Source of the DNA: a virus
Virus record (IMG/VR): IMGVR_UViG_3300028909_000011
DNA length: 39,999 bases
Direction: 5' to 3' (one strand)
Shown: one piece after another, positions 670 through 33,094 of the stretch
Numbering within the stretch: the first letter of the stretch is position 1
Layout of the letters: every line of letters starts with the position of its first letter
Program-made: the position numbers and the translations under genes
The notes under the pieces: model-generated
What the model was told of the DNA's origin: nothing
The model's input: the letters and a program-made list of their open reading frames with translations, nothing else
The model's database searches: none

Positions 670-984
670 ATGAACACCGAAACACCAGAAGAGAAAGCCA
701 AGCGAATCTATATCGCCGGCCCGATGACAAACATACCGGAACTCAACTTCCCGGCATTCCACGCAGCCGCAGCCGATCTGCGCAAGGCCTGTCATCACGT
801 TGTCAATCCGGCGGAAATCAACGCGGATACGACGGCGCAATGGGTTGATTGTATGCGGGCGGATATTCGCGAGCTGGTGGATTGCACTCACATAGCGATG
901 CTGCCGGGTTGGGAAAAGTCGCGCGGGGCTACGCTTGAGCATCATATTGCTGTCGCGCTGGGCTTCTATGTGGGATATCTATGA
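670..984 (+). CDS. DUF4406 / nucleoside 2-deoxyribosyltransferase-like protein
   Basis: 104 aa. The N-terminal IYIAGPMT...NFPAF...VVNP pattern is typical of DUF4406. The stop overlaps the next start (ATGA at 981). Confidence 0.65.
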   Translation: MNTETPEEKAKRIYIAGPMTNIPELNFPAFHAAAADLRKACHHVVNPAEINADTTAQWVDCMRADIRELVDCTHIAMLPGWEKSRGATLEHHIAVALGFYVGYL

Positions 985-2084
985 CGATCCGGCATATTGT
1001 TTCAGTGTCTGGCGGAAAAGACAGCCTCGCTACGCTGCTGATCGCTATCGAACGCTTTGGCTTGGCGGCGGTCATGGCTATCTTCTGCGATACAGGGAAT
1101 GAGCACGAGTTGGTCTATGAGTACCTGGGCTACTTGGAATCTGCGCTCGGCATCAAGATACATCGGTTGAAGGCCAGCTTTGATGACCAGATCGCCGCAA
1201 AGCGCATGTTCATCGCCCGCGATAAACGTACACGCCGGTCTTATGACACTGTTGTTCGCAAGGATGCCGCTGGCAACATTATCTACCGCATGGACAACAA
1301 CGGCCTCCCGATGCTGGAGCCGGTCTGGAAGAGCGGAGTCATGGATCTAGTCGGCGTACCGAAGACAAAGAAAGCCAATGGGAAAAAGACGCGATGGTCG
1401 AACAAAGCCAAGCGCCGCGCCCTTGAATTCCTCAAGCCAACAGGCAATCCGTATCTCGACCTGTGCATGTGGAAGGGCCGCTTTCCGAGCCGCAAAGCGC
1501 AGTTCTGCACTGAATTTCTGAAGCGCAATCCGGCTGTCGAGTTCCAGCTCGAAGTGCAGGAGCAGGGCTATACTGTAGTTTCCTGGCAGGGCGTGCGTTG
1601 CGACGAGTCAGCGGCCCGTCGCAACGCAAAGCCATTCGAGAAGCTTGGTGCGGATTTCTACATCTATCGCCCGATTGCCTTCTGGTCGGCAATGGACGTG
1701 TTCGCGTACTGCGCCTCCAAGGGCATCAAACCGAATCCGCTGTACATGATGGGGATGAACCGGGTCGGCTGCATGCCATGCATCAACGTCGCAAAGTCCG
1801 AGTTACGCGAGATTGCAAGTCGATTTCCTGATCATATTTCAAAGATTGGGGAATGGGAGTGGTTTGTTGCCGCGTGTAGCAAGCGCCAGGCCGCGACATT
1901 CATTCCTGCGCCTACACGTGGCAAGAAAATCACCGACCAGAAAGCTTACGCTGCTAAGAACGATATTTACTCCGTGGTCGAGTGGTCAAAAACGACTCGC
2001 GGCGGCAATCAATACGATTTACTCGCCAATCTCAGCGAGTCATCTGGATGCTCATCCTCTTACGGTCTTTGCGACAATGGATAA
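981..2084 (+). CDS. PAPS reductase family / PP-loop ATP pyrophosphatase-like protein (DndC-like fold)
   Basis: 367 aa. PP-loop SVSGGKDS near the N-terminus. Cys motifs GCMPC and GCSSSYGLC in the C-terminal half suggest a metal or Fe-S site. Confidence 0.75.
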   Translation: MTIRHIVSVSGGKDSLATLLIAIERFGLAAVMAIFCDTGNEHELVYEYLGYLESALGIKIHRLKASFDDQIAAKRMFIARDKRTRRSYDTVVRKDAAGNIIYRMDNNGLPMLEPVWKSGVMDLVGVPKTKKANGKKTRWSNKAKRRALEFLKPTGNPYLDLCMWKGRFPSRKAQFCTEFLKRNPAVEFQLEVQEQGYTVVSWQGVRCDESAARRNAKPFEKLGADFYIYRPIAFWSAMDVFAYCASKGIKPNPLYMMGMNRVGCMPCINVAKSELREIASRFPDHISKIGEWEWFVAACSKRQAATFIPAPTRGKKITDQKAYAAKNDIYSVVEWSKTTRGGNQYDLLANLSESSGCSSSYGLCDNG

Positions 2085-8910: not shown

Positions 8911-10191
8911 ATGGCAACAGATACCATCCTCACGATGTCCCAGATCACCAACGAATCGTTGATGGTCTTGGAGAATGAAACCGTTTTCGCCGCCGGCGTC
9001 AATCGTAATTATGATGACTCGTTCGGCATCGACGGCGCAAAGATTGGCGATACACTGAATGTTCGCCGCCCTCCGCGCTTCATCGGGACCAGTGGTCCGA
9101 ACCTGAATGTTGAAGATTTCAACCAAACTAGCATCCCGGTTGTCATCGGTAATCCAGCCAAATACGGCGACCAATTCCACGTCGATGTTGCGTTCACCAC
9201 CAAAGACCTGAAACTGTCCCTTGGCGCATTCAGCGAAAACGTCGTCAAACCAGCCGTTGCGGCGATTGCCAATCGCATCGACTATATCGGCCTGCTGATG
9301 GCTAAAAACTCAGTGGCTAACATCGTCGGCACGCCCGGCACGCCGAATTCGTCTCTGCTTACCTACCTGACAGCCGGTGCTTACATGACCGCCGAAGCGA
9401 CCCCGCTGAAGGGCAATCGTTCGATGGTATTGGAACAATTTGGCGGCGCAACAATCGTCGATTCGCTGAAGGGCCTGTTTATCCCGAACGACAAAATCGG
9501 CGCGCAGTTCCGCAGTGGTCTGATGGGGCGCGATTCTGCCGGTATGGATTGGGTGACTGATCAGAACGTACAGAATCAGACCTTTGGCTCTTGGGCTGCA
9601 TCTACTGCTGGAACTTTGACTGGATCGACCAGCGATACTGGCATCTTGACATCAGGCTGGGCTTCAACCAGCACTATTACCCTGACTCAGAGTGCTACAT
9701 TGACACTGAATCAAGGCGATGTGATTAGCATGGCGGGCCTGTATCCTGTCAATCCGCAAAATCGCCAAGTATATGGCACAAAACCACGGACATTCGTCGT
9801 TCAATCGACTGCGACCGGCACGGGTAATGGCACTTTCACTGTGACCGTAGCGCCAGCAATCATCACAGGTGGACAGTTCCAAAACTGCTCCGTGGTGACT
9901 GCCAGCACTACCGCAACCGTTACCCCATATAACATCGGGGTTTCGGGCGCAGGAACTACTTCTCCACAAAACATCCTTCATCACAAAAATGCTTTTACCT
10001 TGGCAATGGCCGATCTGCCGATGCCTCGCGGTGTAGAATATGCTGGCCGTGCATCGAGCAAGGAAGGCGGCATGTCGATTCGTGTGGTGACGCAGTACAC
10101 CATCAATAACGATCAGATGCCAACTCGTTTCGATACGCTATTTGGCTGGGCGCCCCTTTACCAGGAAATGGCGTGCAGGGTCGCTGGTTAA
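8911..10191 (+). CDS. Major capsid protein (P22 coat protein family)
   Basis: 426 aa. N-terminus ...ESLMVLENETVFAAGVNRNYDDSFGIDGAKIGDTLNVRRPPRF matches the P22 coat-family pattern. Gene order fits. Confidence 0.85.
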   Translation: MATDTILTMSQITNESLMVLENETVFAAGVNRNYDDSFGIDGAKIGDTLNVRRPPRFIGTSGPNLNVEDFNQTSIPVVIGNPAKYGDQFHVDVAFTTKDLKLSLGAFSENVVKPAVAAIANRIDYIGLLMAKNSVANIVGTPGTPNSSLLTYLTAGAYMTAEATPLKGNRSMVLEQFGGATIVDSLKGLFIPNDKIGAQFRSGLMGRDSAGMDWVTDQNVQNQTFGSWAASTAGTLTGSTSDTGILTSGWASTSTITLTQSATLTLNQGDVISMAGLYPVNPQNRQVYGTKPRTFVVQSTATGTGNGTFTVTVAPAIITGGQFQNCSVVTASTTATVTPYNIGVSGAGTTSPQNILHHKNAFTLAMADLPMPRGVEYAGRASSKEGGMSIRVVTQYTINNDQMPTRFDTLFGWAPLYQEMACRVAG

Positions 10192-10195
10192 TGGC

Positions 10196-10217
10196 TGCCC
10201 CTGCGGGGGCATTTTTG
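10196..10217 (+). terminator. Rho-independent terminator after the coat gene
   Basis: TGCCCC-tgcg-GGGGCA stem followed by TTTTT, 5 nt after the TAA. Confidence 0.65.
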
Positions 10218-10670: not shown

Positions 10671-10692
10671 ACCCCGCTTTGGCGGGTTTTTA
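10671..10692 (+). terminator. Rho-independent terminator
   Basis: CCCGC-tttg-GCGGG stem followed by TTTTT. Confidence 0.6.
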
Positions 10693-12553: not shown

Positions 12554-13276
12554 ATGACTACCCAGCCAATCGCCATCATTCAGAGCGCGTTATCCGGTAT
12601 CGGCGCGCTGGCACCGGGCGAACCGCTTGACCCTGCATTGGCGCAAGATGCATTCCTGATGCTGAATGACATGCTTGATGTGGAATCGAACAATGATTTC
12701 ATGGTGGTGAGCATCAGCGAGATTATTCAAAATATCGGAGGCGGTGGCACAGCCTGGACAATTGGCCCAGGCGCGCAAATCAATGTGGCGCGCCCGCTCA
12801 GCATCAATAGCGCCTTTGTGCGCGTTTCCAGCCTCGATTATCGTGTTGCTGTAATCAATGTTGAACAGTACGAACTGATCGGCCTCAAGCAATTGAATGG
12901 GCCATGGCCCCGTGCTGTCTATTATCAAAGCACGAGTCCCATCGGTACGCTGAATTTCTGGCCGAATCCCTCGTCGGGAGAGATCCATTTATTTGTGAAT
13001 CAGCAGTTCACCAGCTTCGCCACGATCAACGATACAGTGCTTTTTCCGCCGGGGTACAACATGTGGATGCGGTGGCAGCTTGCATTGCTGCTGATGCCAG
13101 GGTATGGAAAAACTGATCCATCACTCGCCTCAATGGTAGAGAAAAATATCACTAAGGCGAAGGCCGCGATCAAGCGCACCAACATGAAGCCGCTTCAGTC
13201 GGCGCAGTTCGACCCGAATATCTGCGATTCTCGGCCTCGTGATGCCGGCTGGTTCCTGCATGGGGGATTCGCATAA
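12554..13276 (+). CDS. Head-to-tail adaptor (P22 gp4-like)
   Basis: 240 aa. IIQSALSGIGALAPGEPLDPALAQDAFLMLNDMLD parallels P22 gp4 LVRAALRKLGVASDATL...MQDAVDDLEAMMAEW. Confidence 0.65.
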   Translation: MTTQPIAIIQSALSGIGALAPGEPLDPALAQDAFLMLNDMLDVESNNDFMVVSISEIIQNIGGGGTAWTIGPGAQINVARPLSINSAFVRVSSLDYRVAVINVEQYELIGLKQLNGPWPRAVYYQSTSPIGTLNFWPNPSSGEIHLFVNQQFTSFATINDTVLFPPGYNMWMRWQLALLLMPGYGKTDPSLASMVEKNITKAKAAIKRTNMKPLQSAQFDPNICDSRPRDAGWFLHGGFA

Positions 13277-14718
13277 TGCCTAACTTCGATGGATTCGTCG
13301 GCGGGGCATATGAAGCGCCATCGATCTATCAGGATGCGCAGGAATGCATCAACTGGTATTGCGAGATTGACTCTACCAAGAAAGAAGGTGAGCGCGGCGT
13401 CATTGCGCTTTACCCGACTCCCGGCAAGATACTGCAATTCACTTTCCCTGACCTGCTGGAAGTCCGTGGATTCTATGTCCTTGAAGGCGGCTTGCAAATG
13501 CTGGCGGTATGCGGACCTTCACTTTATCTGGTGAATGCGTCGCTGGTGGCAACATTCATCGGATCGCTGCTATCATTTTCTGGTCCGGTTTCGATATCAG
13601 ACAATCGGATCGAGGCTTTGATTGTTGATGGAGCCAATCGCTATTCATATTCCATCGCTGCGCAAACTCTTTCGGTAATCGCATCAAGCGATGGCGCATT
13701 TGTAGGCGGCAATGTGGTCGATTTCGCCGATGGATTTTTTGTCTATAACCAGCCGAATAGCAATATTTGGGCGGCCTCATCTCCGTTAGGATCTGATACA
13801 CCGGCATTGAGCTTTGGCAGCAAGGGGTCCTCACCCGACAATATCGTCACCATTATCGCGGACCATCGCGAGGTTCTGCTGATAGGTGAGAAAACGACCG
13901 AGGCATGGATCAACGTCGGGGCCTTCCCATTCCCATTCCAGATCATCCCCGGAACATCATTTCAGCATGGCTGCGCGGCCCAGTGGAGTCTTGCGCGTCT
14001 TGGCGAGTCAACTGCATGGCTGGCGCAGGATACGCGCGGTCAGGCCGTGGTGGTACAGATGGCTGGCTATCAGCCAAAGCGCATTTCCACGCATGCGGTC
14101 GAGGTCGATATCATGAATGGCGTCATCAGTGATGCAATCGCTTATACCTACAATCAGGAGGGGCACGAATTTTATGTTCTAACCTTCCCGACTCAGGATA
14201 AAACTTGGTGCTATGACCTAGCCACGCAGCTATGGCACAAACGGGCTGAGCGCGACAATCTGAATGTGCTACATCGGGATAGCGGAAACTGCCATGCTAT
14301 TTTTCAAGGAATGCATCTCGTCGGGGACTTCCAGAATGGGAATGTCTATTCCCTCGATCTGAATACTTATACCGACAATGGTGCGCCGATCCTGCGCATG
14401 CGCCGCGCTCCGCATATGACAGTCAATCTCAATAGGGTATTTTACGACTCGCTCCAGATTCAGTTTCAGCCAGGCGTCGGAATACCGAGCGGACAGGGTT
14501 CGGACCCCCAAGCGATGCTGCGCTGGTCCGATGATGGTGCTTCGACTTGGTCGGCATATTACCCGCTTCCGATTGGAAAGATAGGGCAATTCAAAAATCG
14601 CTGCATTAAACGAAAAATGGGTTTCGCTCGGGACCGAGTTTATGAGGTAACGATTACTGACCCGGTGCGCGCCGTGATTATCTCTGCCGAAATTGAAGCA
14701 ACCGCAGGGAGTAGCTGA
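13276..14718 (+). CDS. Tail hub / packaged-DNA stabilisation protein (P22 gp10-like)
   Basis: 480 aa (P22 gp10 is of similar size as I recall). Position after the gp4-like gene. The C-terminal pattern ...RCIKRKMGFARDRVYEVTITDPVRAVIISAEIE resembles the gp10 C-terminus. Confidence 0.55.
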   Translation: MPNFDGFVGGAYEAPSIYQDAQECINWYCEIDSTKKEGERGVIALYPTPGKILQFTFPDLLEVRGFYVLEGGLQMLAVCGPSLYLVNASLVATFIGSLLSFSGPVSISDNRIEALIVDGANRYSYSIAAQTLSVIASSDGAFVGGNVVDFADGFFVYNQPNSNIWAASSPLGSDTPALSFGSKGSSPDNIVTIIADHREVLLIGEKTTEAWINVGAFPFPFQIIPGTSFQHGCAAQWSLARLGESTAWLAQDTRGQAVVVQMAGYQPKRISTHAVEVDIMNGVISDAIAYTYNQEGHEFYVLTFPTQDKTWCYDLATQLWHKRAERDNLNVLHRDSGNCHAIFQGMHLVGDFQNGNVYSLDLNTYTDNGAPILRMRRAPHMTVNLNRVFYDSLQIQFQPGVGIPSGQGSDPQAMLRWSDDGASTWSAYYPLPIGKIGQFKNRCIKRKMGFARDRVYEVTITDPVRAVIISAEIEATAGSS

Positions 14719-15128
14719 TGAGCACCGGTTTCGGAATACCGCTCCCAAGCTCTAAATTCGTCTCGCCTGACGGAATGATATCGCGTGATTGGTATCTTTT
14801 TTTAAGTGCGCTGTTGCAATCGGTCGGGGGGCCGTCAGTAGTGAATATAATAACGCCATCGGCTGGCGGCTCAACGCCGGGCGGCGTACCAACGACGATT
14901 GAGCTTCAGACGCTTATCGAAGATACCCCACCTTCCAGCCTTGAGGCTTTGGCGGCATTGCAGGCAATAGATGAATTGCGGAATACTCAGCAGATTGGGA
15001 TTGACCCGCGAATCAACGATCTGATGTTGATGATTGACGAGCTGAGAAATAATTTAGATTCCGCATTGACCAGTAATCAGGCTTTGCGGCTACGCATAGA
15101 AACCTTGGAAGCACAGACACTTATATGA
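14718..15128 (+). CDS. Coiled-coil tail needle/plug-like protein (gp26 position)
   Basis: 136 aa. The C-terminal half has heptad-like, Leu-rich repeats (LEALAALQAIDELRN...LMLMIDELRNNLDSALTSNQALRLRIETLEAQ). Confidence 0.45.
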   Translation: MSTGFGIPLPSSKFVSPDGMISRDWYLFLSALLQSVGGPSVVNIITPSAGGSTPGGVPTTIELQTLIEDTPPSSLEALAALQAIDELRNTQQIGIDPRINDLMLMIDELRNNLDSALTSNQALRLRIETLEAQTLI

Positions 15129-15469
15129 CAATTTCCTACGCTAAGTTCTTCCAGCCGACCGTGCTGTCGGGGTCGAATGCCATTTTATTCACCGTGGCCG
15201 CACCGCAGCCAGCATCAACACTTCTGCGTGGTGGCCGCGTGCGCCTAACCAATGTTACGGCATCACCGGCAACCGTCACACTGAATGCGGTTCCTTCAGG
15301 CGGCTCGCTGCTTACCGGTAACGAATTCCTTGCCGCTCAATCCATTCCCGCGAATACCTACCTCGACGTTGATCTGCCAATTCTGGCGTTTGGAGATTCG
15401 CTGCAAGGTCTTTCCGGAACAGCCAGCGCGATAAATATTTGCATCATCGCGGGGAGTTACTTCTCATGA
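15125..15469 (+). CDS. Hypothetical small beta-rich protein (gp14 position)
   Basis: 114 aa. ATGA coupling on both sides. Confidence 0.55.
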   Translation: MTISYAKFFQPTVLSGSNAILFTVAAPQPASTLLRGGRVRLTNVTASPATVTLNAVPSGGSLLTGNEFLAAQSIPANTYLDVDLPILAFGDSLQGLSGTASAINICIIAGSYFS

Positions 15470-16035
15470 AAAACTTTCAATTGGTCGCATCTGGTGTCGA
15501 TATTATGCCACTGCTACTCGCCATCAAGCGCCGGGCCGACCTATGGAAAGAGGATACCTATCTGCGCGATTATCCGCAGGGGCCGTTCAAGCAAATCGAA
15601 TCGATCATGCTGCGCTTTCCGACCAAGGGAGTTTATGAGACTGAGGAAGAATTGCAGAACCATCTCAGTACCTACGACCAGCACGAAAATGTTGATTATC
15701 CAGCCTATAAGACACTGCCAGAAGCCCGGCAAATCGTCATGGCGCTGATGTCCCGCGTCGGCGGTGAGCGTCTGGGCCGCGTGATGATCAACAAAATCGC
15801 GCCGGGCGGCGTCATTTTCCCGCACGTCGATACGAAGTCGCATACTGATTATTACAGCCGGTTCCATGTTGTTTTGCAGAGTCAGCCCGGCGTCGTTTTT
15901 CGCGCTGGAGATGAATCGATTCACATGCAGACCGGGGAGTCGTGGTGGTTCGATAATAGCCAAGAGCATGAGGTTATCAACAATAGCGCAGATGATCGAA
16001 TCCATATGATTGTCGACATAAGGACTTCAAAATGA
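15466..16035 (+). CDS. Aspartyl/asparaginyl beta-hydroxylase family (cupin Fe(II)/2OG dioxygenase-like) protein
   Basis: 189 aa from ATG 15466. GGVIFPHVDTKSH...YSRFHVVLQS...GESWWFDNSQEHEVINNSADDRIHMIVD matches the Asp_Arg_Hydrox family core (PH.D...R.H..L...FD.S..H.V.N.S...R). Confidence 0.75.
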   Translation: MKNFQLVASGVDIMPLLLAIKRRADLWKEDTYLRDYPQGPFKQIESIMLRFPTKGVYETEEELQNHLSTYDQHENVDYPAYKTLPEARQIVMALMSRVGGERLGRVMINKIAPGGVIFPHVDTKSHTDYYSRFHVVLQSQPGVVFRAGDESIHMQTGESWWFDNSQEHEVINNSADDRIHMIVDIRTSK

Positions 16036-16487
16036 TCACCGCGCATATTGAATCATTCGAGCAGCGCCTGCCGGAATTACAGGTGCTATTGCCGGATCAC
16101 TACAAAGAACTCGCGCTCGATCAGGAGCACGTCCCGCTTGATCCGCAATATGAGATTTATGTGCAGCGTGAGCGGCAGGGTGAATTGATGTTCGTTACCT
16201 TGCGTGATGCGGGTGCGCTTGTGGGCTACCTTATCGCATTTGTTGCCCCTGGCCTGCATTACAAAACATGTCTGACCTGCATTACTGACATTTTCTATAT
16301 CCGCAAGGACAAACGCAAGGGCAACGCAGGCGTCAGATTGTTTCGTTTCGCAGAGGCAGAATTGCGTCGGCGCCGCGTGCGTCGCTGGTTCATGGGGTCG
16401 AAAGTCCATGCCGATGCAAGCGCTCTATTTAAGCGAATCGGCGCGCGCCCCGTCGAGACGACTTACAGCAAGTGGCTTGGAGATTGA
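16032..16487 (+). CDS. GNAT-family N-acetyltransferase
   Basis: 151 aa. ...LVGYLIAFV...DIFYIRKDKRKGNAGVRLFRFAEAEL...LFKRIGARPVE is a GNAT motif-A-like R.G.G segment. ATGA overlap with the hydroxylase gene. Confidence 0.7.
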   Translation: MITAHIESFEQRLPELQVLLPDHYKELALDQEHVPLDPQYEIYVQRERQGELMFVTLRDAGALVGYLIAFVAPGLHYKTCLTCITDIFYIRKDKRKGNAGVRLFRFAEAELRRRRVRRWFMGSKVHADASALFKRIGARPVETTYSKWLGD

Positions 16488-16490
16488 TTG

Positions 16491-17279
16491 ATGAGTATTT
16501 TTAAGCTGATGGATTGGGTCTTTCCATTGCGACTGTATCAGTCGAATGTAGCGGCTGCGGTTATCGGTGGCGCTGTCGTTGGTGGCGCTGTCAATGCATA
16601 TTCTGCAAATACTGCATCTAATGCGCAACAGTCTGCGGCAAGTACTGCGGAAAATACGCAGTTGGATATGTACAACACGACCAACGCGCAGCAAGCGCCT
16701 TATAGGGCTGCTGGTGATACTGCGCTGGGTCAATTGTCGGACGGGACCGCGCCGGGAGGGCAATTCACGCATACATTCGATGCAAATGATCTGAATTCAA
16801 ATCTTGCGCCGAATTACAATTTCCAGCTTCAGCAGGGTTTGGGCGCAGTGAATAATCAGAACTCGGTGGCTGGCGGCCTAGTCGGCGGGAACGCCCTAAA
16901 GGGCATTAGCGATTATGCGCAGAACTCAGCGGCAAGCGCCTATCAGCAAGCGTTCAACAACTACAATACAAATCAGACGAATATTTATAATAGATTGTCG
17001 AATATTGCAGGTCTAGGTCAAACCGCAAATGGTCAGAGCGCGACATCAGCATCGAATGCGGCAAGCAATATCGGGTCGGCGCAACTAGCCAATGGCGCGG
17101 CATCGGCAGCAGGAACTATCGGGACTGGGAATGCAATTTCAGGGGCAATTAATAATGCTTCTGGTTGGTACGCTGGGCTGAATTCTGGAGGGTATAGCGG
17201 AAGCGGAACAGGTGTCTCAAATGGCGTTCAAATCTATGGCAATGGCACCACGGCCCAAGCGGCTGGGTTCACTCAATAA
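16491..17279 (+). CDS. Ejection/internal virion protein-like (gp7 position)
   Basis: 262 aa, Asn/Gln/Ala/Gly-rich, with an N-terminal hydrophobic segment. ATG 16491 lies 8 nt after GGAG. Confidence 0.55.
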   Translation: MSIFKLMDWVFPLRLYQSNVAAAVIGGAVVGGAVNAYSANTASNAQQSAASTAENTQLDMYNTTNAQQAPYRAAGDTALGQLSDGTAPGGQFTHTFDANDLNSNLAPNYNFQLQQGLGAVNNQNSVAGGLVGGNALKGISDYAQNSAASAYQQAFNNYNTNQTNIYNRLSNIAGLGQTANGQSATSASNAASNIGSAQLANGAASAAGTIGTGNAISGAINNASGWYAGLNSGGYSGSGTGVSNGVQIYGNGTTAQAAGFTQ

Positions 17280-17293
17280 AATAAAGGTAAGTC

Positions 17294-18736
17294 ATGCCAT
17301 TACAAATACCAGATCAGACAATCGCCGACAAAGGTATTCAGCCTCCTAACCCGTTGCAGACTATAAGCGGGATGCTGAACATCCAGAATCAGCGCGCCCA
17401 GTTGCAGGGTCAGCAGATTTACAACCAGGGAAATCAGGCGAATCTGGATGAGAAAACTTCAATCCGCAATCTGGTCAATGACCCTTCGGTGCAAAATCCA
17501 GATGGCAGCTTGAATCAGGATGCGTTCGCTGCTAAGGCGCAGATTGCCGCGCCAACTCTTGGTGCCGGGATAGCGCAAGGCAATCTCCAAAACCAAGGCA
17601 CGCAGACTGCGAATGCATCGAGCGCGTTCGCCCTCCATAAAGATTATGCCGGCACCATGCTGCAAACTGCGGCAGGGGTCATGGCTGATCCGCGCATTAC
17701 TGCTGGCACTCCATCAAACCCGAATACCCAATACGATCCAGAACAGGCCACAAACGCATTAACGGAGGCGATGAGCCAAGCGGAGGCGAAGGGTGTGCCG
17801 AAGGCGCAGGCATTGCTTGCTGTGGCTCCATTCGTCAATGCTGTGCATACGCCCGGCGCAGTTCGGCAGATGCTGGCGAATACCGTGCAGGGGCAACTCG
17901 GAGCAGGCGGCCAAGCAGCGCAAAATCTCGTCCCGGCTGGTGGCCAGCAATCTGTTTCGACAGATTCCAATGGGAACCCAATTACGACCTCACGCGATCA
18001 GTTCGGCAATGTCCAAGGCGTTGCGGGTACTCCGGTACAAGGCCAAGCGCCTACGCCGCCGAATATCGTGCCGCCTGGTGAAAGCCAAGCATCCATGAAT
18101 GAATTACGCCAGGCTCGGACTGCGACCAATACCGCTGCCGCACAGGTGCCGAACTCTCATGTCTACAACCAAAACGTGATTCGCTTGGCATCAGATCCGG
18201 CCATGATGAATCCGAATAGCTGGGCGGGCCAAGGCGCAGCCTATGCGGCGAAACTGGGCCTTCCTCCTGGAACTGATTACAAAACAGCGCTCGACCAGAT
18301 CAGCCACAATCTTGCCATGTCCACGCAGGCAAACGAACAGGCTATGGGCGTGCATACGGACGCCGGAGCGCAAACCACGGCATTGGCTACAGGATCAATC
18401 GGCATGACTCCTGCCGCGCTTGCATCTGCCGCCAAGATGAATGATGCGACTGCCAGCGGTTTGGACGCATTCAATCGAGGCCAAGAGGCGGCAATTTCGG
18501 CAAATGGCGGGAATGTCTCAGCACGGCGCGCATTTCAAAATGCATGGTCAAGCGCCTATAGCCCTACGGTAATGGCGCTCCATAATGCAATCGGAAGCGG
18601 CAATAAGGCCGATGTCACGAACATCATCAATCAAGTAGGAGGTCCCGGCTCAAAAGGCGCGCTTGACCTGGCCAATCGGGCCAAGGCTATCCAGAGCCTC
18701 GTGCAGACCGGAAAACTTCCTCAAGGTTCGCAATAA
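17294..18736 (+). CDS. Ejection/internal virion protein-like (gp20 position)
   Basis: 480 aa, Gln/Ala/Asn/Gly-rich and low-complexity. Size and position match P22 gp20. Confidence 0.55.
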   Translation: MPLQIPDQTIADKGIQPPNPLQTISGMLNIQNQRAQLQGQQIYNQGNQANLDEKTSIRNLVNDPSVQNPDGSLNQDAFAAKAQIAAPTLGAGIAQGNLQNQGTQTANASSAFALHKDYAGTMLQTAAGVMADPRITAGTPSNPNTQYDPEQATNALTEAMSQAEAKGVPKAQALLAVAPFVNAVHTPGAVRQMLANTVQGQLGAGGQAAQNLVPAGGQQSVSTDSNGNPITTSRDQFGNVQGVAGTPVQGQAPTPPNIVPPGESQASMNELRQARTATNTAAAQVPNSHVYNQNVIRLASDPAMMNPNSWAGQGAAYAAKLGLPPGTDYKTALDQISHNLAMSTQANEQAMGVHTDAGAQTTALATGSIGMTPAALASAAKMNDATASGLDAFNRGQEAAISANGGNVSARRAFQNAWSSAYSPTVMALHNAIGSGNKADVTNIINQVGGPGSKGALDLANRAKAIQSLVQTGKLPQGSQ

Positions 18737-21228
18737 TGGATGACTTTTCAGACCTGAGTAATGCAGTAGCGGAAGCCGCCGGCGCGCCGGTATCGCGCGC
18801 GACCTACACCATTCAAACGAATGGGACGAACAGCGCACCAGCACCAGCAGCACAACAATCGCCGCTTGATAAGGCGCTCGCAGCAGAAGGCACAACCGGA
18901 CCAGTGGCCGATATAGCGCGCAGCATCTATACGCAGGAGTCGGGCGCTGGCTCAAACACGAAAACATCGAACGCAAACGCTGTCGGTGGAATGCAGGTCC
19001 AACCGGATACTTTTTCAAGCGTTGCCGACAAGGGGTGGAATATTCATGACCCGGTGCAGAACGCACGCGCCGGTGTACGTTACGTGCAACAAATGTACAG
19101 CCAAGCCGGTGGCGATCCTGTGCTTACCGCAGCTGGCTATTATGGCGGTCCTGGTGGGCTTGAGAAGGCTCGTCAAGGTATTCCAGTATCAGACCCGCGT
19201 AATCCTGGCGCGCCGAATACGCTCCAGTATGGGCAGCAGGTGGCGAGTCGTCTGCCTCAATCTTCGCCGGCAGTCTACGACCCCAATGCATTCAATGCTG
19301 ACGATATCGTTGCAGCCCTCACAGGATCAGGACAAGCGAATGCAGCGCAAGCGCAGCAGACCGTCGCCGGACCATCACAGGCATCGCAAATACCCGGCAC
19401 TAATGCCGTCGCGCCACCTTCGGACCATGGCGTAGCGCAGCCTGATCAGCCACAAACATGGTGGGACAAATTAAAAGGTGCTGGCGAAGCCGCATTGGCT
19501 ACAGGTACTGGACTAGCGGCTGGAGTGGTTGGGCCTGCTGCGGGGCTTGCCTATGGCATCACACACGATTATGGAACGCCACAGGGAGTTAGGAATGCTG
19601 CTGATGTTGCATCGAATGTTTCGGATTCGATGACATACGCGCCACGGACACAATCTGGCCAGCAGCAGACGCAGGCAATCGGCGACGCCATCAATAACAG
19701 CGGCGTCATGGGCTTGGCTCCTATTGCTGAAATGCAGATGCTAGGCCATATGCGCAATCCGAGCGCTGGCGGCGTGCCGATTAGCGACATTACGCAGGAT
19801 GCGCCAGCCCGTATCGAGCCTACATTGAAGCCGCGCATCAAGCTAGGCGTTGATGGATCACAAACTCCGATTGATTCGACTGGCGCACCAGTGACAGCAA
19901 CCGGCCCGCAAAGTGTCGGAGCAGCAGCATCCAGCTATTCTCAACAAGCTGCTGCTTCTGGTGCATCTCCTGAAATGGTAGCAGCTATCGCAAAGGCAGA
20001 AGAAAACGGACAATTAAATTCGACCGCAGCCGCTCGACATATTGAGGCAAGTTCACTTCCTGTCCCAGTTGATCTTACTGCCGGCCAAGCTACTGGAGAC
20101 GTTAATATCCTCTCTCATGAACAGAATACCAGAGGCGCGCAGCCTGGTCTGGCCGAGCGGTTTAATGGACAGAATGGACAATTAATAGAAAATATCAATG
20201 CAATTCGTGATCAAGCAGCACCAGACGTATTTGGCGCTAATCATGTAGAGAACGGGCAATCAGTCATCAATTCATATTTGGCAAAAGATGATCTTGCCAA
20301 TACCGATATTTCGGCAAAGTATCAGGCTTTGAAAGATGCGAATGGGGGCGACTTCCCATTGAAAGGGAGTGATTTCGTCAATTCAGCAGATGCCGCCCTT
20401 AAAGCGGATAACGTCACACGATTTCTGCCTCCGGAGGTAGGCGGGATATTAGGAGACTTGCGTGACGGGGGGGCAATGACGGTTAATGATTTTGAGAATT
20501 ATCGGACAATCCTTGCTCAGCAAGCCAGAAAAGCAGCGCGATCCGGCGACGGTACGGCTGAGCATGCAATCAATGTCGTTAGAAACTCTCTTGAAAGCAT
20601 CCCAATGTCTGATGAAGCAGCAGCTATCAAACCCCTAGCAGATGCTGCCAGATCAGCAGCAAAGGCAAGATTCGATGCTCTACGCGAAGATCCAGCTTAT
20701 AACGCTGCCGTCAATGGCACCGTGGCGCCTGATGATTTCATCCATAAATTTGTAGTGAGTGGGAAAGTTGGGGATGTCGGAATAATGCAAGCGAATCTTG
20801 CAGATGATCCGTCAGCAGCTCAAGCTATTGCATCGGGCGCAATCAACCATCTTAAAAACCGCGCGGGTGTCGGTAATGATGCTGGCAACTTTTCGCAGGC
20901 TGGATACAACAAGGCATTACAGGCGATGGCACCTAAACTAAACGCTCTCGTTCCATCTGAGCAGGCACAACAATTACAGACTCTTGGGAATGTTTCGCGC
21001 TATACGACCGAGCAGCCACGTGGGGCATATGTGAACAATTCTAATACCCTTGTTGGATCAATGGCAAATAGCTCAAAAGAACTCGTACTCGGGGTTCTCA
21101 ATGCAAAAACTTACGGCGCATCTGGACTGATTAGAAATAAATTAGCTGAACGGGCGGCGTCAAAGTCAGCAGCAAAATCTTTGGAAGTTGGAGCTGGCTT
21201 AACTAACATTTCAGGATTTCCAAAATGA
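18736..21228 (+). CDS. Ejection/internal virion protein with N-terminal lytic transglycosylase (SLT) domain
   Basis: 830 aa. IYTQESGAGS...VGGMQVQPDTF...ARAGVRYVQQMY...AGYYGG fits the SLT E-S...GLMQ...Y pattern. It is the last and largest of three ejection-type genes. Confidence 0.75.
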   Translation: MDDFSDLSNAVAEAAGAPVSRATYTIQTNGTNSAPAPAAQQSPLDKALAAEGTTGPVADIARSIYTQESGAGSNTKTSNANAVGGMQVQPDTFSSVADKGWNIHDPVQNARAGVRYVQQMYSQAGGDPVLTAAGYYGGPGGLEKARQGIPVSDPRNPGAPNTLQYGQQVASRLPQSSPAVYDPNAFNADDIVAALTGSGQANAAQAQQTVAGPSQASQIPGTNAVAPPSDHGVAQPDQPQTWWDKLKGAGEAALATGTGLAAGVVGPAAGLAYGITHDYGTPQGVRNAADVASNVSDSMTYAPRTQSGQQQTQAIGDAINNSGVMGLAPIAEMQMLGHMRNPSAGGVPISDITQDAPARIEPTLKPRIKLGVDGSQTPIDSTGAPVTATGPQSVGAAASSYSQQAAASGASPEMVAAIAKAEENGQLNSTAAARHIEASSLPVPVDLTAGQATGDVNILSHEQNTRGAQPGLAERFNGQNGQLIENINAIRDQAAPDVFGANHVENGQSVINSYLAKDDLANTDISAKYQALKDANGGDFPLKGSDFVNSADAALKADNVTRFLPPEVGGILGDLRDGGAMTVNDFENYRTILAQQARKAARSGDGTAEHAINVVRNSLESIPMSDEAAAIKPLADAARSAAKARFDALREDPAYNAAVNGTVAPDDFIHKFVVSGKVGDVGIMQANLADDPSAAQAIASGAINHLKNRAGVGNDAGNFSQAGYNKALQAMAPKLNALVPSEQAQQLQTLGNVSRYTTEQPRGAYVNNSNTLVGSMANSSKELVLGVLNAKTYGASGLIRNKLAERAASKSAAKSLEVGAGLTNISGFPK

Positions 21229-24532: not shown

Positions 24533-24936
24533 AAATCGTTATTGCCTTATTCGCCATCCTGCTTGCCGGTTGCGCTGGCGCGCCAATCCAACCGCTTACC
24601 CCTGCGCAGATCGTCGCGCAGATCAATACGCAAGTCTGTCCATCGGTGAAACTGATCCTGGCCGACCTGCAAACGCCGGGCCTCGTCACCGATCCCGCAT
24701 TGCTTGCCAAACTTCCGACGGTCCAGAACGACGTTACAGCCGTTTGTGCTGATGGCGCTACCCTGAATGCGGCGAGCCTGCAAACGCTTGCCACAAGCGC
24801 GCTGCCTATCGTCCTTGACGTGGTTAAGGCTGTACCGGGTCCGCAGCAAGACGCGGCGATTGCTGGAATTACCGCAGCGCAGATCCTGCTGCCGATCCTG
24901 ATTGCGCAAGTGCAAGCGCTGCCGGCCGTAAAATGA
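24529..24936 (+). CDS. Lipoprotein (o-spanin-like)
   Basis: 135 aa. The lipobox in MKIVIALFAILLAGC is a signal peptidase II motif. Position is downstream of the endolysin gene. Confidence 0.55.
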   Translation: MKIVIALFAILLAGCAGAPIQPLTPAQIVAQINTQVCPSVKLILADLQTPGLVTDPALLAKLPTVQNDVTAVCADGATLNAASLQTLATSALPIVLDVVKAVPGPQQDAAIAGITAAQILLPILIAQVQALPAVK

Positions 24937-25553
24937 TTACCCCGCTCCTGTTAGCGCAGTTCAGTAACGCCATCTATTCGCAGTCCACAGGATGGGACGA
25001 CTATTGGACGCTGGATGATGTCGTGGTGGCACGCAAGCGCGTTGACGATACTGATGTGATCGTGCATCGCGGCTCGGCAGTCGGCTCGGATTGGGTGAAA
25101 AACTTTACCGCTTATCCGAAGTGGCATTCTCAGCTCGGCTATTGCCATGCCGGGTTCCTGTCTGGCATGGATGAGGTATTTAGTGAAGTTCGCGTGGCTG
25201 TCGGCGCAAATGTCGCCATTACCGGTCACAGCTTAGGCGGGGCGCGTGCGCGGATATTGGCGGGACTATTCGCTTACAACAAAATCCCGGTTGATCTGCT
25301 GACCGTATTCGGCGCACCGAAGCCGGGATTTATCAACCTGGCGCGAATCATTCAGAAATCAGGCATCGTGCATACCTCATTTCGCAACAGAAATGACGTC
25401 GTTCCTACGCTGGCGCTGTCAATCGCCCCATTCCTTGAGTTCGTGCATACAGAAGATTGGCAGGTATTGAACGCCGCCCCGGCATCCGATAACTTGGAGC
25501 CGTTGCGGGACCACTCGATTGATTTGTATATCAAGGCATTGTCCGTCGCCTAA
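24933..25553 (+). CDS. Class 3 lipase / alpha-beta hydrolase
   Basis: 206 aa. Nucleophile elbow ITGHSLGGARA, Asp candidate NRNDVVPTL, His candidate RDHSIDLY. ATGA-coupled to the lipoprotein gene. Confidence 0.75.
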   Translation: MITPLLLAQFSNAIYSQSTGWDDYWTLDDVVVARKRVDDTDVIVHRGSAVGSDWVKNFTAYPKWHSQLGYCHAGFLSGMDEVFSEVRVAVGANVAITGHSLGGARARILAGLFAYNKIPVDLLTVFGAPKPGFINLARIIQKSGIVHTSFRNRNDVVPTLALSIAPFLEFVHTEDWQVLNAAPASDNLEPLRDHSIDLYIKALSVA

Positions 25554-26361
25554 CGGCATCTTGACGAGCCTTTTGAGCAATGGACATATTTTTCTTTGCT
25601 TCTGGTGATCTGGTCTTACCTCTATTTGTTTCAGCTATTTTTTTCCTTGTATCTTCCGATACCGGCCTCCCGGTTAATGCCGCGACGATTTTAGCTTTCG
25701 TCTCATCTGTCACTATCCTTGCTCTGCCAATAACAGATAGCTTTTCACGCTGCTCTTGCGACATGGATCGACCGGTTAATGCTGCAGTGATTTTTGACTG
25801 GTGATCAAATGATTTAACTCTTCCTTTATGGAATAGCGAAACCTTTTCTTTGTGCTCATTAGATAATTTTCTCCCGGTAGTTGCGGCCGATATTTTTTCT
25901 CTTTGCTCTGGCGTTCTGATTGATCCGGTATTTGCTATAGAAATTTTTTTACGAGATTCTTCGCCAAGAGTATGACCTCTACTTTTCTCCCCTATAAGCC
26001 TCCGAGTTTCTGCGCTTGGGGACGTCCCCTTTCTTCCTTTTAGTGCTTGCGATATCTTCTTTCTAACTTCGGGCATGAGTGACGGGGATATGTCTCCACC
26101 AGTAGTCATGTTATAGCCTCCGGGAGCCAGCGACCCAGCCTCAGCTATGAATCTAATCTCCTCGTCATGCAAAATATCATTACCGACCTCTGCAAGAGTT
26201 GATACGGATGGATCTCCATATTTTCTCCACGCATGGTAGATCGCTTGATTTTGGTATTTTGATGAGGATTTATGCTCGGCGTAGCGAGAATCTACGGTTT
26301 TTGTAGTAAGACCAACATATTTTTTGCCATTTGAAAACTCAAGACAATAGATAAAGCCCAT
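25531..26361 (-). CDS. GIY-YIG homing endonuclease with about 10 tandem NUMOD3-like repeats
   Basis: 276 aa. GFIYCLEFSNGKKYVGLT...RYAEHK...YNMTTGG is a GIY-YIG core. Ten roughly 17-aa units of the form x-E-x-R-x-K-I-S-x-A-x-x-G-R follow. The 3' end overlaps the lipase 3' end by 23 bp. Confidence 0.85.
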   Translation of the reverse strand: MGFIYCLEFSNGKKYVGLTTKTVDSRYAEHKSSSKYQNQAIYHAWRKYGDPSVSTLAEVGNDILHDEEIRFIAEAGSLAPGGYNMTTGGDISPSLMPEVRKKISQALKGRKGTSPSAETRRLIGEKSRGHTLGEESRKKISIANTGSIRTPEQREKISAATTGRKLSNEHKEKVSLFHKGRVKSFDHQSKITAALTGRSMSQEQREKLSVIGRARIVTDETKAKIVAALTGRPVSEDTRKKIAETNRGKTRSPEAKKNMSIAQKARQDAVRRRTMP

Positions 26362-32293: not shown

Positions 32294-33094
32294 TTACGCT
32301 TGCTTCGACTCTTCCTCAGCCATCCGCCTCATATCAGCCAATGCATTTTCATTGTCGCAATAAAAATTCGGAAGGCGCTCAGTTTTCCATCGCTCCGTAT
32401 CGCTTGCCATGTAGATTGCCATCGCAGCGGCTGGAGTGCCTATTTTATCCTCAAGTGCTTTGCCGGCTTCTCCAGCGATGGTTATAACCCATCCGGCGCG
32501 ACAATGTGTGGTTCCGCAATGCCACGAACCCATGTTCAGCGCGCCAGGAGCAGACGCCGCAGCGTAGATAACCTGATGAATATTTGGTACTGAAGGGGCG
32601 CCCGCCAGGTTGGCGCCCGTCAGGTCGGCGCCCGCCAGGTCGGCGTACTTCAGGTCGGCGCCCGTCAGGTCGGCGTACTTCAGGTTGGCGCCCGCCAGGT
32701 TGGCGTACTTCAGGTTGGCGCCCGTCAGGTCGGCGTACTTCAGGTCGGCGCCCGTCAGGTCGGCGCCCGTCAGGTCGGCGCACTTCAGGTCGGCGTACTT
32801 CAGGTCGGCGCCCGTCAGGTCGGCGCCCGCCAGGTCGGCGCACTTCAGGTCGGCGTACTTCAGGTCGGCGCCCGCCAGGTCGGCGCCCGCCAGGTCGGCG
32901 TACTTCAGGTCGGCGCCCGTCAGGTCGGCGTACTTCAGGTCGGCGCCCGTCAGGTCGGCGCCCGTCAGGTCGGCGCCCGCCAGGTCGGCTTGTGCTTTCC
33001 GCGCCATATCCAACGTGATTTTCAGTGTGTTTTCTTCGCAATCATGCGAAAAAAGGACATTTCCGTTATAGCGATTTTTAATTTTGATTAGCAT
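32294..33094 (-). CDS. Pentapeptide-repeat protein with a conserved-looking Cys/His C-terminal domain
   Basis: 266 aa. 26 consecutive A(D/N)Lxx pentapeptides (ADLTG/ADLKY/ADLAG/ADLKC/ANLKY...). Followed by ...GSWHCGTTHCRAGWVITIAGEAG.... Confidence 0.9.
   Translation of the reverse strand: MLIKIKNRYNGNVLFSHDCEENTLKITLDMARKAQADLAGADLTGADLTGADLKYADLTGADLKYADLAGADLAGADLKYADLKCADLAGADLTGADLKYADLKCADLTGADLTGADLKYADLTGANLKYANLAGANLKYADLTGADLKYADLAGADLTGANLAGAPSVPNIHQVIYAAASAPGALNMGSWHCGTTHCRAGWVITIAGEAGKALEDKIGTPAAAMAIYMASDTERWKTERLPNFYCDNENALADMRRMAEEESKQA
32600..32989. repeat. Tandem 15-bp DNA repeat array (26 units) encoding the pentapeptide repeats
   Basis: Units such as caggtcggcgcccgt, caggtcggcgtactt, caggttggcgcccgc and caggtcggcgcactt follow head to tail without spacers. 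Confidence 0.9.

Follow-up and report, generated by a model that had tools for sequence, protein, structure and literature searches.

In the virus record IMGVR_UViG_3300028909_000011 of IMG/VR, a stretch of 39,999 nucleotides (nt) that was analyzed in full and is referred to here as the window, two small enzyme genes lie directly upstream of the gene for a DNA ejection protein. The first encodes a 189-amino-acid (aa) hydroxylase dependent on 2-oxoglutarate (2OG) and Fe(II), a member of the Asp/Asn beta-hydroxylase family (PF05118; 15466..16035, + strand). The second encodes a GNAT-fold acetyltransferase-like protein of 151 aa (16032..16487, + strand) in the slot called IVP-A, i.e., the position of T7 gp13 and P22 gp14. 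Next comes ejection protein 1 (ej1), a protein of 262 aa (16491..17279, + strand) that is the analogue of IVP-B, P22 gp7 and T7 gp14. We put at about one in two the probability that the enzyme pair is functionally linked to ejection protein maturation, as a two-enzyme module acting on ej1. A specific N-terminal chemistry, in which the oxygenase would hydroxylate the mature Val-Ala-Ala-Ala (VAAA) segment of ej1 and the IVP-A GNAT would N-acetylate it before packaging, is put forward far more tentatively. An earlier reading of this DNA from the letters alone (the sequence-only reading) had listed the modification of ejection or tail proteins among several possible roles; synteny, gene fusion and co-variation of the VAAA motif would favor the ejection protein.

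Hydroxylase and GNAT genes beside the ejection gene

The ATG of the hydroxylase at 15466 overlaps the TGA of a preceding 114-aa open reading frame (ORF) as ATGA, the ATG of the GNAT at 16032 overlaps the hydroxylase TGA by the same 4 nt, and the ATG of ej1 at 16491 lies 4 nt past the last base of the GNAT stop. This confirms the arrangement that the sequence-only reading had described, i.e., two overlapping + strand ORFs with ATGA junctions and the next gene 4 nt on. Its view that the pair is translationally coupled inside a late operon for virion and ejection proteins was also supported, and since no convincing + strand terminator-like site was seen between 10686 and 21500, the late genes can be regarded as one transcription unit. 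The further statement that the enzymes are stoichiometrically linked to virion proteins went too far, being an over-reading of the gene overlaps.

The assignment of the first enzyme to the Asp/Asn beta-hydroxylases was borne out by Pfam profile search, with PF05118 (Asp_Arg_Hydrox) scoring 66.8 bits (E = 2.7e-18; Pfam cut-off 22.6). Oxygenases of the 2OG class hold Fe(II) through HxD/E...H ligands, or through two His residues in the case of AspH. In the window protein the metal triad consists of H120 (15823-15825), D122 (15829-15831) and H168 (15967-15969), and R178 (15997-15999) is the 2OG-binding residue. When the PDB was searched with phmmer, Streptomyces proline 3-hydroxylase (1e5r) and Mesorhizobium L-proline cis-4-hydroxylase (4p7w) were the best matches, followed by human AspH. 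In these alignments PHVD (H120, D122) falls on the HxD metal ligands of the proline hydroxylases, EHEV (H168) falls on the distal His and is identical to the AspH sequence FEHEV, and R178 falls on the 2OG-binding Arg in the AspH sequence FRLIFIVDV. All four residues are invariant in hydroxylase homologues down to 32% identity and are intact in both natural hydroxylase-GNAT fusions described below, which upholds the earlier description of the PHVD...EHEV motif as intact. The AlphaFold2 (AF2) model of the hydroxylase, with a predicted local distance difference test (pLDDT) score of 81, has the double-stranded beta-helix fold, and Foldseek matched it to 4p7w, Cpz10 (7v4o), AspH (6yyu) and 1e5r at E = 1.6e-10 to 1e-8; the Foldseek list also holds the Pseudomonas EF-Tu prolyl hydroxylase (4iw3). 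Cpz10 acts as a beta-hydroxylase on a small molecule in caprazamycin biosynthesis, and the nearest folds (the L-proline cis-4- and 3-hydroxylases and Cpz10) belong to enzymes that bind a free alpha-amino group. Judged by its residues, the phage hydroxylase has kept the intact catalytic site of a 2OG/Fe(II) oxygenase.

The beta-helix fold, the 2OG Arg and the EHEV distal His are common to the phage enzyme, the Asp/Asn beta-hydroxylases (AspH, LpxO, Cpz10) and the free-proline hydroxylases, and the last of these also have the full HxD...H triad. Whereas AspH carries a TPR domain and a membrane anchor and LpxO has membrane segments, the phage protein is a minimal catalytic domain of 189 aa in whose sequence no hydrophobic or membrane-anchor segment was visible. 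Unlike any of these enzymes, it forms a phage-restricted clade adjoining an IVP-A GNAT. Several more specific identities were tried with NCBIfam models and rejected, namely LpxO (NF033391, 12.8 bits vs. a cut-off of 500), OlsC (15.1 bits vs. 450) and the nonproteinogenic amino acid hydroxylase equivalog, for which the match was weak and far below cut-off.

To survey the locus, we mapped the window proteins onto the best 80 of at least 529 IMG/VR stretches with hydroxylase homologues, chosen by hydroxylase similarity. A GNAT gene directly follows the hydroxylase gene in all 78 loci with downstream DNA, overlapping it by 4 nt in 46 of them, so the co-occurrence that had been proposed for checking was found at every informative locus. 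After the GNAT, essentially all related loci carry ej1 (PHROG 598) or an analogue with a hydrophobic Ala/Gly/Val-rich N-terminus. Clustered at 90% identity, homologues of the hydroxylase form at least 1,717 protein clusters, and they include prophage copies in Massilia and Paraburkholderia; among the matches listed, none lay in a non-phage operon. Only five records among 50,697 deposited phage genomes contain the hydroxylase. It is near full length in three of these, i.e., Pseudomonas phage PfAn1, Limnohabitans phage DC33 and a metagenomic podovirus genome (MW202665), and of the three only PfAn1 and DC33, both cultured phages, also have the GNAT. Both enzymes are carried by a large clade of phages of Burkholderiales and Pseudomonas, most of them uncultured.

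The two enzymes also occur as single polypeptides. Linkers of 25-35 aa join a hydroxylase and a GNAT domain in two cluster representatives, P0300 (352 aa) and P0330 (368 aa), and the order of the two domains in these fusions is the same as in the operon. The P0330 fusion was found on three independently assembled contigs from different samples, with ejection-like genes after it, and P0300 on one contig. Moreover, the hydroxylase-GNAT-ej1 block persists while its surroundings change. The gp10-like gene lies upstream in many loci and downstream of the ejection genes in others (L008, L012, L014, L019), and the block is kept despite this relocation, as it is in divergent contigs of 49-71 kb with quite different tail genes. 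PfAn1 (PV364321; XRX11815-XRX11818) has the same order of small ORF, hydroxylase, GNAT, internal virion proteins and transglycosylase as the window, with 54% identity for the hydroxylase, which is labeled 'hypothetical protein', and 51-54% for the GNAT, labeled 'putative acetyltransferase'; unlike in the window, its head-closure genes are on the opposite strand. In DC33 the pair lies between the genes for the large terminase subunit (TerL) and the portal and is followed by an IVP-B-like protein of 107 aa, and in MW202665 a 32%-identical hydroxylase, with no GNAT beside it, comes immediately before a 'DNA ejection' gene. In the large clade with both enzymes, the hydroxylase is obligately paired with the GNAT, coupled to it in translation and sometimes fused with it. 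As a separate matter, the GenBank taxonomy of DC33 (L002, PQ492659) says Inoviridae, which cannot be right for a phage of 39 kb with TerL and portal genes.

The GNAT in the IVP-A slot

The GNAT identity of the second enzyme was confirmed by its fold and by PHROG 1249 ('acetyltransferase'), which matches it at 3e-12. With the Pfam profile PF00583 the protein scored 20.5 bits, just under the cut-off of 20.7; its homologues scored 18-41 bits and most were above the cut-off, the PfAn1 protein being below it (18.3 bits). In a Foldseek search of the PDB, the AF2 model (pLDDT 83) gave more than 500 matches at E <= 1e-3, and the best 50 listed were all GNATs (including 4j3g, 5jtf, 1yvo and AAC(3)-I), with template modelling (TM) scores of 0.6-0.76. 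The top match was a Rim-type ribosomal-protein N-alpha-acetyltransferase, and other high matches were amino-acid-analogue acetyltransferases of the ArsN, phosphinothricin and MddA types and AAC(3)-I. Against BFVD, an N-acetyltransferase of phage VpV262 was a top match (TM 0.81). The idea of a HlyC-type lysine acyltransferase was abandoned, as no such enzymes were among the best 50 PDB matches listed.

A profile of the GNAT family, searched against 1.84 billion cluster representatives, retrieved 3,847 clusters at E <= 1e-3. Across 117 aligned representatives, which share 32-56% identity with the window protein, residues E7, H23, L36, Y43, R58, G65, Y66, H76, D86, R95 and K124 are conserved at 90% or more. 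The protein has a loop resembling the coenzyme A loop, R95-x-G97-x-x-G100 (16314-16331), the canonical form of the acetyl-CoA pyrophosphate-binding loop being Q/R-x-x-G-x-G/A; its Arg is conserved at 94% and G100 at 73% (86% with Ala). Given these conserved polar residues and the R-x-G-x-x-G loop, the protein is more likely an active enzyme than just a scaffold. Two further members of the GNAT family, P0309 (277 aa) and P0361 (279 aa), have an unclassified N-terminal domain of about 130 aa in place of the hydroxylase, possibly another type of partner joined to IVP-A by fusion.

The enzymes' families had also led the sequence-only reading to consider an LpxO-like role on lipid A and a Mom-like modification of DNA. 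We regard it as extremely improbable that the pair modifies host lipid A or lipopolysaccharide, or phage DNA. Superfamily membership is what speaks for such roles, and nothing else does: PF05118 includes LpxO, and Mom is acyltransferase-like. Set against this are the LpxO and OlsC scores given above, the lack of a membrane anchor in the hydroxylase, the absence of Mom-like or nucleic-acid-modifying enzymes among the top fold matches of the GNAT in the PDB and BFVD, and a synteny that points to the ejection protein.

The slot occupied by the GNAT is a known one. IVP-A is the small non-structural gene that opens the internal-virion-protein module of podoviruses, and has been described as an acetyltransferase-like morphogenesis gene of T7-, P22-, epsilon15- and VpV262-type phages; it matches acetyltransferases in the T7 and VpV262 types and is needed for morphogenesis, the T7 protein not being retained in virions (Hardies et al., 2016, Virology, PMC4819975). 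Gene 14 of P22 encodes 151 aa and lies directly before gene 7, so that it has the same length and position as the window GNAT. T7 gp13 and epsilon15 gp13 each lie directly before gp14, the latter with the RefSeq note 'HHpred: 3fbu Acetyltransferase, GNAT family'. VpV262 ORFS is an acetyltransferase in the IVP-A slot, directly before ORFT and the giant internal virion protein, and was matched by the hidden Markov model of the GNAT family at 66 bits (E = 3e-22). Like the window GNAT, all four proteins have a GNAT fold and 138-160 aa and are encoded directly before the first ejection protein. T7 gp13 (PF11090) and P22 gp14 (PF11039) have diverged into Pfam families of their own, whereas the window GNAT keeps recognizable GNAT motifs. 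GNATs of the window family also fill this slot without a hydroxylase, in MW202796 and in Zobellviridae phages of Vibrio.

We therefore take the GNAT to be the canonical gene of the IVP-A slot in the window phage. The sequence-only reading had taken both enzymes as foreign to the P22-type module, inserted after an ORF at 15125 in the gp14 position; the gp14 slot is filled by the GNAT itself, and therefore only the hydroxylase is extra. This enzyme, which precedes window-type GNATs and elsewhere is fused with them, is lacking in T7, P22, epsilon15 and VpV262.

The GNAT might instead serve ejection proteins as a non-catalytic chaperone or scaffold, a role assumed for T7 gp13, while the hydroxylase modifies another late target, either a virion protein or a host translation or ribosomal factor; we consider this unlikely. 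Bacterial prolyl and ribosomal oxygenases provide a model for the hydroxylation of host translation factors, and the EF-Tu prolyl hydroxylase among the Foldseek matches is in keeping with it. A scaffolding role also fits the name 'probable scaffold protein' that Pfam gives to T7 gp13, the requirement for IVP-A in morphogenesis together with its absence from virions, and the PF00583 score just below cut-off. On the other hand, about ten polar residues and the R-x-G-x-x-G loop are near-invariant among the 117 representatives in a pattern that resembles an active site, the hydroxylase-GNAT fusions argue for a common target, and co-variation at an N-terminal VAAA motif, described next, points at ej1.

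The N-terminus of ejection protein 1

The ej1 protein of the window matches PHROG 598 ('DNA ejection') at E = 2e-23. It starts with a 19-aa leader, MSIFKLMDWVFPLRLYQSN (16491-16547), and continues as VAAAVIGG, in which the motif V20-A-A-A23 (16548-16559) opens a Gly/Ala/Val-rich hydrophobic segment. VAAA was present at the N-terminus of ej1 in 48 of 48 non-identical sequences from pair-positive loci and in 55 of 55 correctly parsed sequences in a second count, despite an overall ej1 identity of only about 36% across such loci. Most pair-positive ej1 ORFs start exactly with MVAAA, and the rest have a conserved leader of about 18-40 residues that ends right before VAAA. The Val and Ala codons of the motif vary synonymously, and this, together with its internal position in the forms with a leader, indicates selection on the protein and not on translation initiation.

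For comparison, relatives of gp29 of the pair-less Rhodoferax phage P26218 were gathered independently. Among the pair-negative loci, VAAA was found in two of 24 distinct sequences (both MSFVAAA) and an MVAAA start in none of the 24, the usual starts being MSGIATAIVG, MSFVAVAIGG, MSWAAVG and MPIAAIAS. Two pair-positive loci fell within this set of relatives, and both start MVAAAVVG. One of the two is 73% identical to P26218 gp29 over residues 37-246 but departs from it right at the motif, with MVAAAVVG vs. MSGVATAIVG in gp29. No other column of ej1 separated pair-positive from pair-negative sequences, the remaining conserved columns, including the invariant Pro71, being common to both.

Leaders of more than one kind precede the motif in the window and in L012, L026 and L030. 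The 19-aa leader is conserved in a subset of relatives, as MKLFKLMEWLFPAYFQMH and MKLFSLWTWIFPASLYQTN. A second class, MKKLRGELKQD...RYC[GNSA], has a Cys two residues before VAAA, and its end recalls the starts of T7 gp14 (MCW-AAAI) and epsilon15 gp14 (MCS-PAIA). According to its annotation, P22 gp7 has its N-terminal 20 residues removed by host OpdA, a precedent for leader loss in this class of protein. There is also a likeness to leader-dependent maturation as in the tailoring of ribosomally synthesized and post-translationally modified peptides (RiPPs) and in P22 gp7 with OpdA, in that the leader ends before the core motif and tailoring-type enzymes are encoded upstream. RiPPs are secreted peptides, whereas ej1 is a virion protein of 26 kDa, so that the likeness is by analogy only, and neither a RiPP recognition element nor a protease, as in RiPP systems, is encoded near the pair.

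In the mechanism that we propose, both enzymes would work in the producing cell, in its cytoplasm and late in infection, on the protein encoded directly downstream, i.e., ej1. The likeliest site would be its mature N-terminus, Val-Ala-Ala-Ala. In most relatives this end would be freed by Met removal, and in the window ej1 by cleavage of the 19-aa leader, much like the 20-aa leader of P22 gp7; some phages, including that of the window, would thus use a cleavable leader in a RiPP-like logic. An N-terminal target is favored because the hydroxylase relatives bind free alpha-amino substrates and the top fold match of the GNAT is an N-alpha-acetyltransferase. Side-chain hydroxylation by the oxygenase would come first, then acetylation by the GNAT at the N-alpha position or nearby. 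The modification may cap and neutralize the N-terminus of a hydrophobic segment that goes on to enter the host envelope; another possibility is that it licenses the loading of ej1 into the procapsid. A peptide representing the proposed substrate, to be taken with or without the leader, has the sequence VAAAVIGGAVVGG. Because IVP-A is not retained in T7 virions, the enzymes themselves are, by analogy, probably not virion components.

That same behavior of T7 IVP-A counts against a scheme in which both enzymes are packaged with the ejection proteins, injected, and act on the host envelope or cytoplasm at the start of infection. Such a scheme would account for the placement and translational coupling of the pair inside the internal-virion-protein operon, and the SLT domain of ejection protein 3 offers a precedent for an enzyme among ejected proteins. 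The hydroxylase, however, requires Fe(II), 2OG and O2, only few copies would be delivered, and neither protein has a membrane or targeting segment. We judge injected effectors to be very unlikely.

Quite unlikely, in our estimate, is a two-step small-molecule pathway in which a free amino acid or metabolite would be hydroxylated and then N-acetylated, as an auxiliary metabolic or anti-defense function riding the late operon. The best solved relatives of the hydroxylase (the free L-proline hydroxylases and the nucleoside-antibiotic enzyme Cpz10) fit this proposal, as do the weak NCBIfam match to a nonproteinogenic amino acid hydroxylase and the resemblance of the GNAT to phosphinothricin-, ArsN- and MddA-type acetyltransferases. 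The only paper that names a homologue, the one on DC33, mentions the hydroxylase solely as a metabolic gene. One would not expect a metabolic cassette to remain beside ej1 through rearrangements, at 30-35% identity, nor to occupy the IVP-A slot and co-vary with the N-terminus of ej1, and the lack of homologues in non-phage operons among the matches listed argues in the same direction. The label of 'aspartyl beta-hydroxylase' as an auxiliary metabolic gene in such phages is probably wrong.

Several points weigh against the proposed link between the enzyme pair and ej1. First, the case for ej1 as the substrate is built on synteny and one correlated motif, both read from sequence, and the correlation may partly reflect shared ancestry. 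More distant hydroxylase-bearing loci have ej1 starts without VAAA (MPWAAAAIVV, MGVTAAVAAVVG, MGISGTMAAVAG and MVGSAIGAVG), so the motif is specific to a closer subfamily. Second, the nearest solved relatives of the two enzymes include the small-molecule enzymes named above (free-proline hydroxylases, Cpz10, phosphinothricin/ArsN-type acetyltransferases and AAC(3)-I). Third, the connection of the GNAT to P22 gp14, T7 gp13 and epsilon15 gp13 rests on position, size, fold and literature. Profiles of the GNAT family gave no signal in hhalign and hmmsearch comparisons with P22 gp14 (DUF2824), T7 gp13 (PF11090) or epsilon15 gp13, although the single-sequence templates made for low sensitivity, and the literature reports the link by HHpred; for epsilon15 gp13, an alignment built from IMG/VR obtained only relatives that are 84-100% identical. 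Fourth, both enzymes are far more conserved than their neighbors, which is a sign of real enzymes (median identity to the window proteins 66% for the hydroxylase and 60% for the GNAT, and 32-38% for the flanking gp4-like, gp10-like and ej1 genes), but the 80 loci were picked by hydroxylase similarity, which inflates the conservation of the hydroxylase. Finally, the close structural relatives MW202674, PBR31 and P26218 have neither enzyme, with no Pfam matches for the content of the slot. Ejection machinery of this type can therefore do without the modification, should there be one.

Genome context and significance of the pair

At about 40 kb, the window covers in essence the whole genome of a lambdoid-type podovirus, and a contig of 40,041 bp carries a hydroxylase protein identical to that of the window. 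Genes for the small and large terminase subunits, portal, scaffold and major capsid proteins are located upstream of the ejection block, and those for endolysin, RecET, NinG and replication downstream of it. At the DNA level, the region had no megablast matches in collections of phage and E. coli sequences.

The P22-like gene order that the sequence-only reading had proposed stood in part. The gene starting at 13276 encodes an Hc3 gp10-type protein (E = 2e-106), ej1 at 16491 is a DNA ejection protein, and the gene at 18736 encodes ejection protein 3 (830 aa; 18736..21228, + strand), which has an N-terminal lytic transglycosylase SLT domain (Pfam, E = 2.5e-12, plus PHROG matches) of the T7 gp16 / epsilon15 gp15 type. 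Family support in Pfam and PHROG was absent for the ORFs at 14718, 15125 and 17294. The last of these, ejection protein 2 (480 aa; 17294..18736, + strand), is placed in the gp20 / IVP-C slot by position only, the assignment resting on synteny with an 'internal virion protein' of PfAn1. The small beta-rich ORF upstream of the hydroxylase (114 aa; 15125..15469, + strand), which had no Pfam or PHROG match, shares 51% identity with the ORF preceding the enzyme pair in PfAn1 but was found in only 12 of 80 related loci. It is an occasional neighbor of the pair, an unrelated small protein and not the gp14 equivalent. In Xanthomonas phage PBR31 (L005), orf028 (9078-9449) is annotated in GenBank as 'acetyltransferase', does not align with the GNAT (19% identity) and weakly resembles this 114-aa ORF (pairwise E = 0.002); the annotation is probably wrong.

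Other features of the window lie apart from the ejection block. Among early and replication genes, the ORF at 981-2084 (+ strand) encodes a 367-aa protein with a match to 'phosphoadenosine phosphosulfate reductase' (PHROG 424, E = 2e-65). Directly after the major capsid gene and the next small ORF there are strong GC-rich hairpins with T-runs, two in all, at 10196-10211 and 10673-10686 (+ strand), respectively; the region after the capsid genes is the usual place of attenuating stem-loops. Downstream of the endolysin, an esterase/lipase-like ORF at 24933-25553 (+ strand; PHROG 21992, E = 2e-20) could encode a deacetylase or a lysis accessory. The opposite strand has, right after the lysis region, an ORF resembling a GIY-YIG-type homing endonuclease (25531-26361, - strand; PHROG 314, E = 2e-33). 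A 266-aa ORF at 32294-33094 (- strand) with several internal repeats matched many PHROGs of unknown function, including phrog_31265 at E = 2e-104 in two or more stretches.

In the searchable literature, we found no description of the hydroxylase-IVP-A pairing, of the fusions or of the VAAA co-variation, nor any report linking a hydroxylase to ejection proteins or any on PfAn1. The IVP-A-slot GNAT by itself belongs to a class that is already known.

How ejection proteins stay soluble, load into procapsids and insert into the host envelope is poorly understood, and to our knowledge the role of the small IVP-A gene (T7 gp13, P22 gp14) has never been explained mechanistically. The clade with the enzyme pair provides a testable hypothesis, namely that IVP-A began as an enzyme modifying IVP-B and here still is one. 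If this is true, the long-enigmatic IVP-A class of T7 gp13 and P22 gp14 would gain a catalytic origin and a function, and, for the first time, phage ejection proteins would be known to undergo modification by enzymes, here across a large clade of podoviruses.

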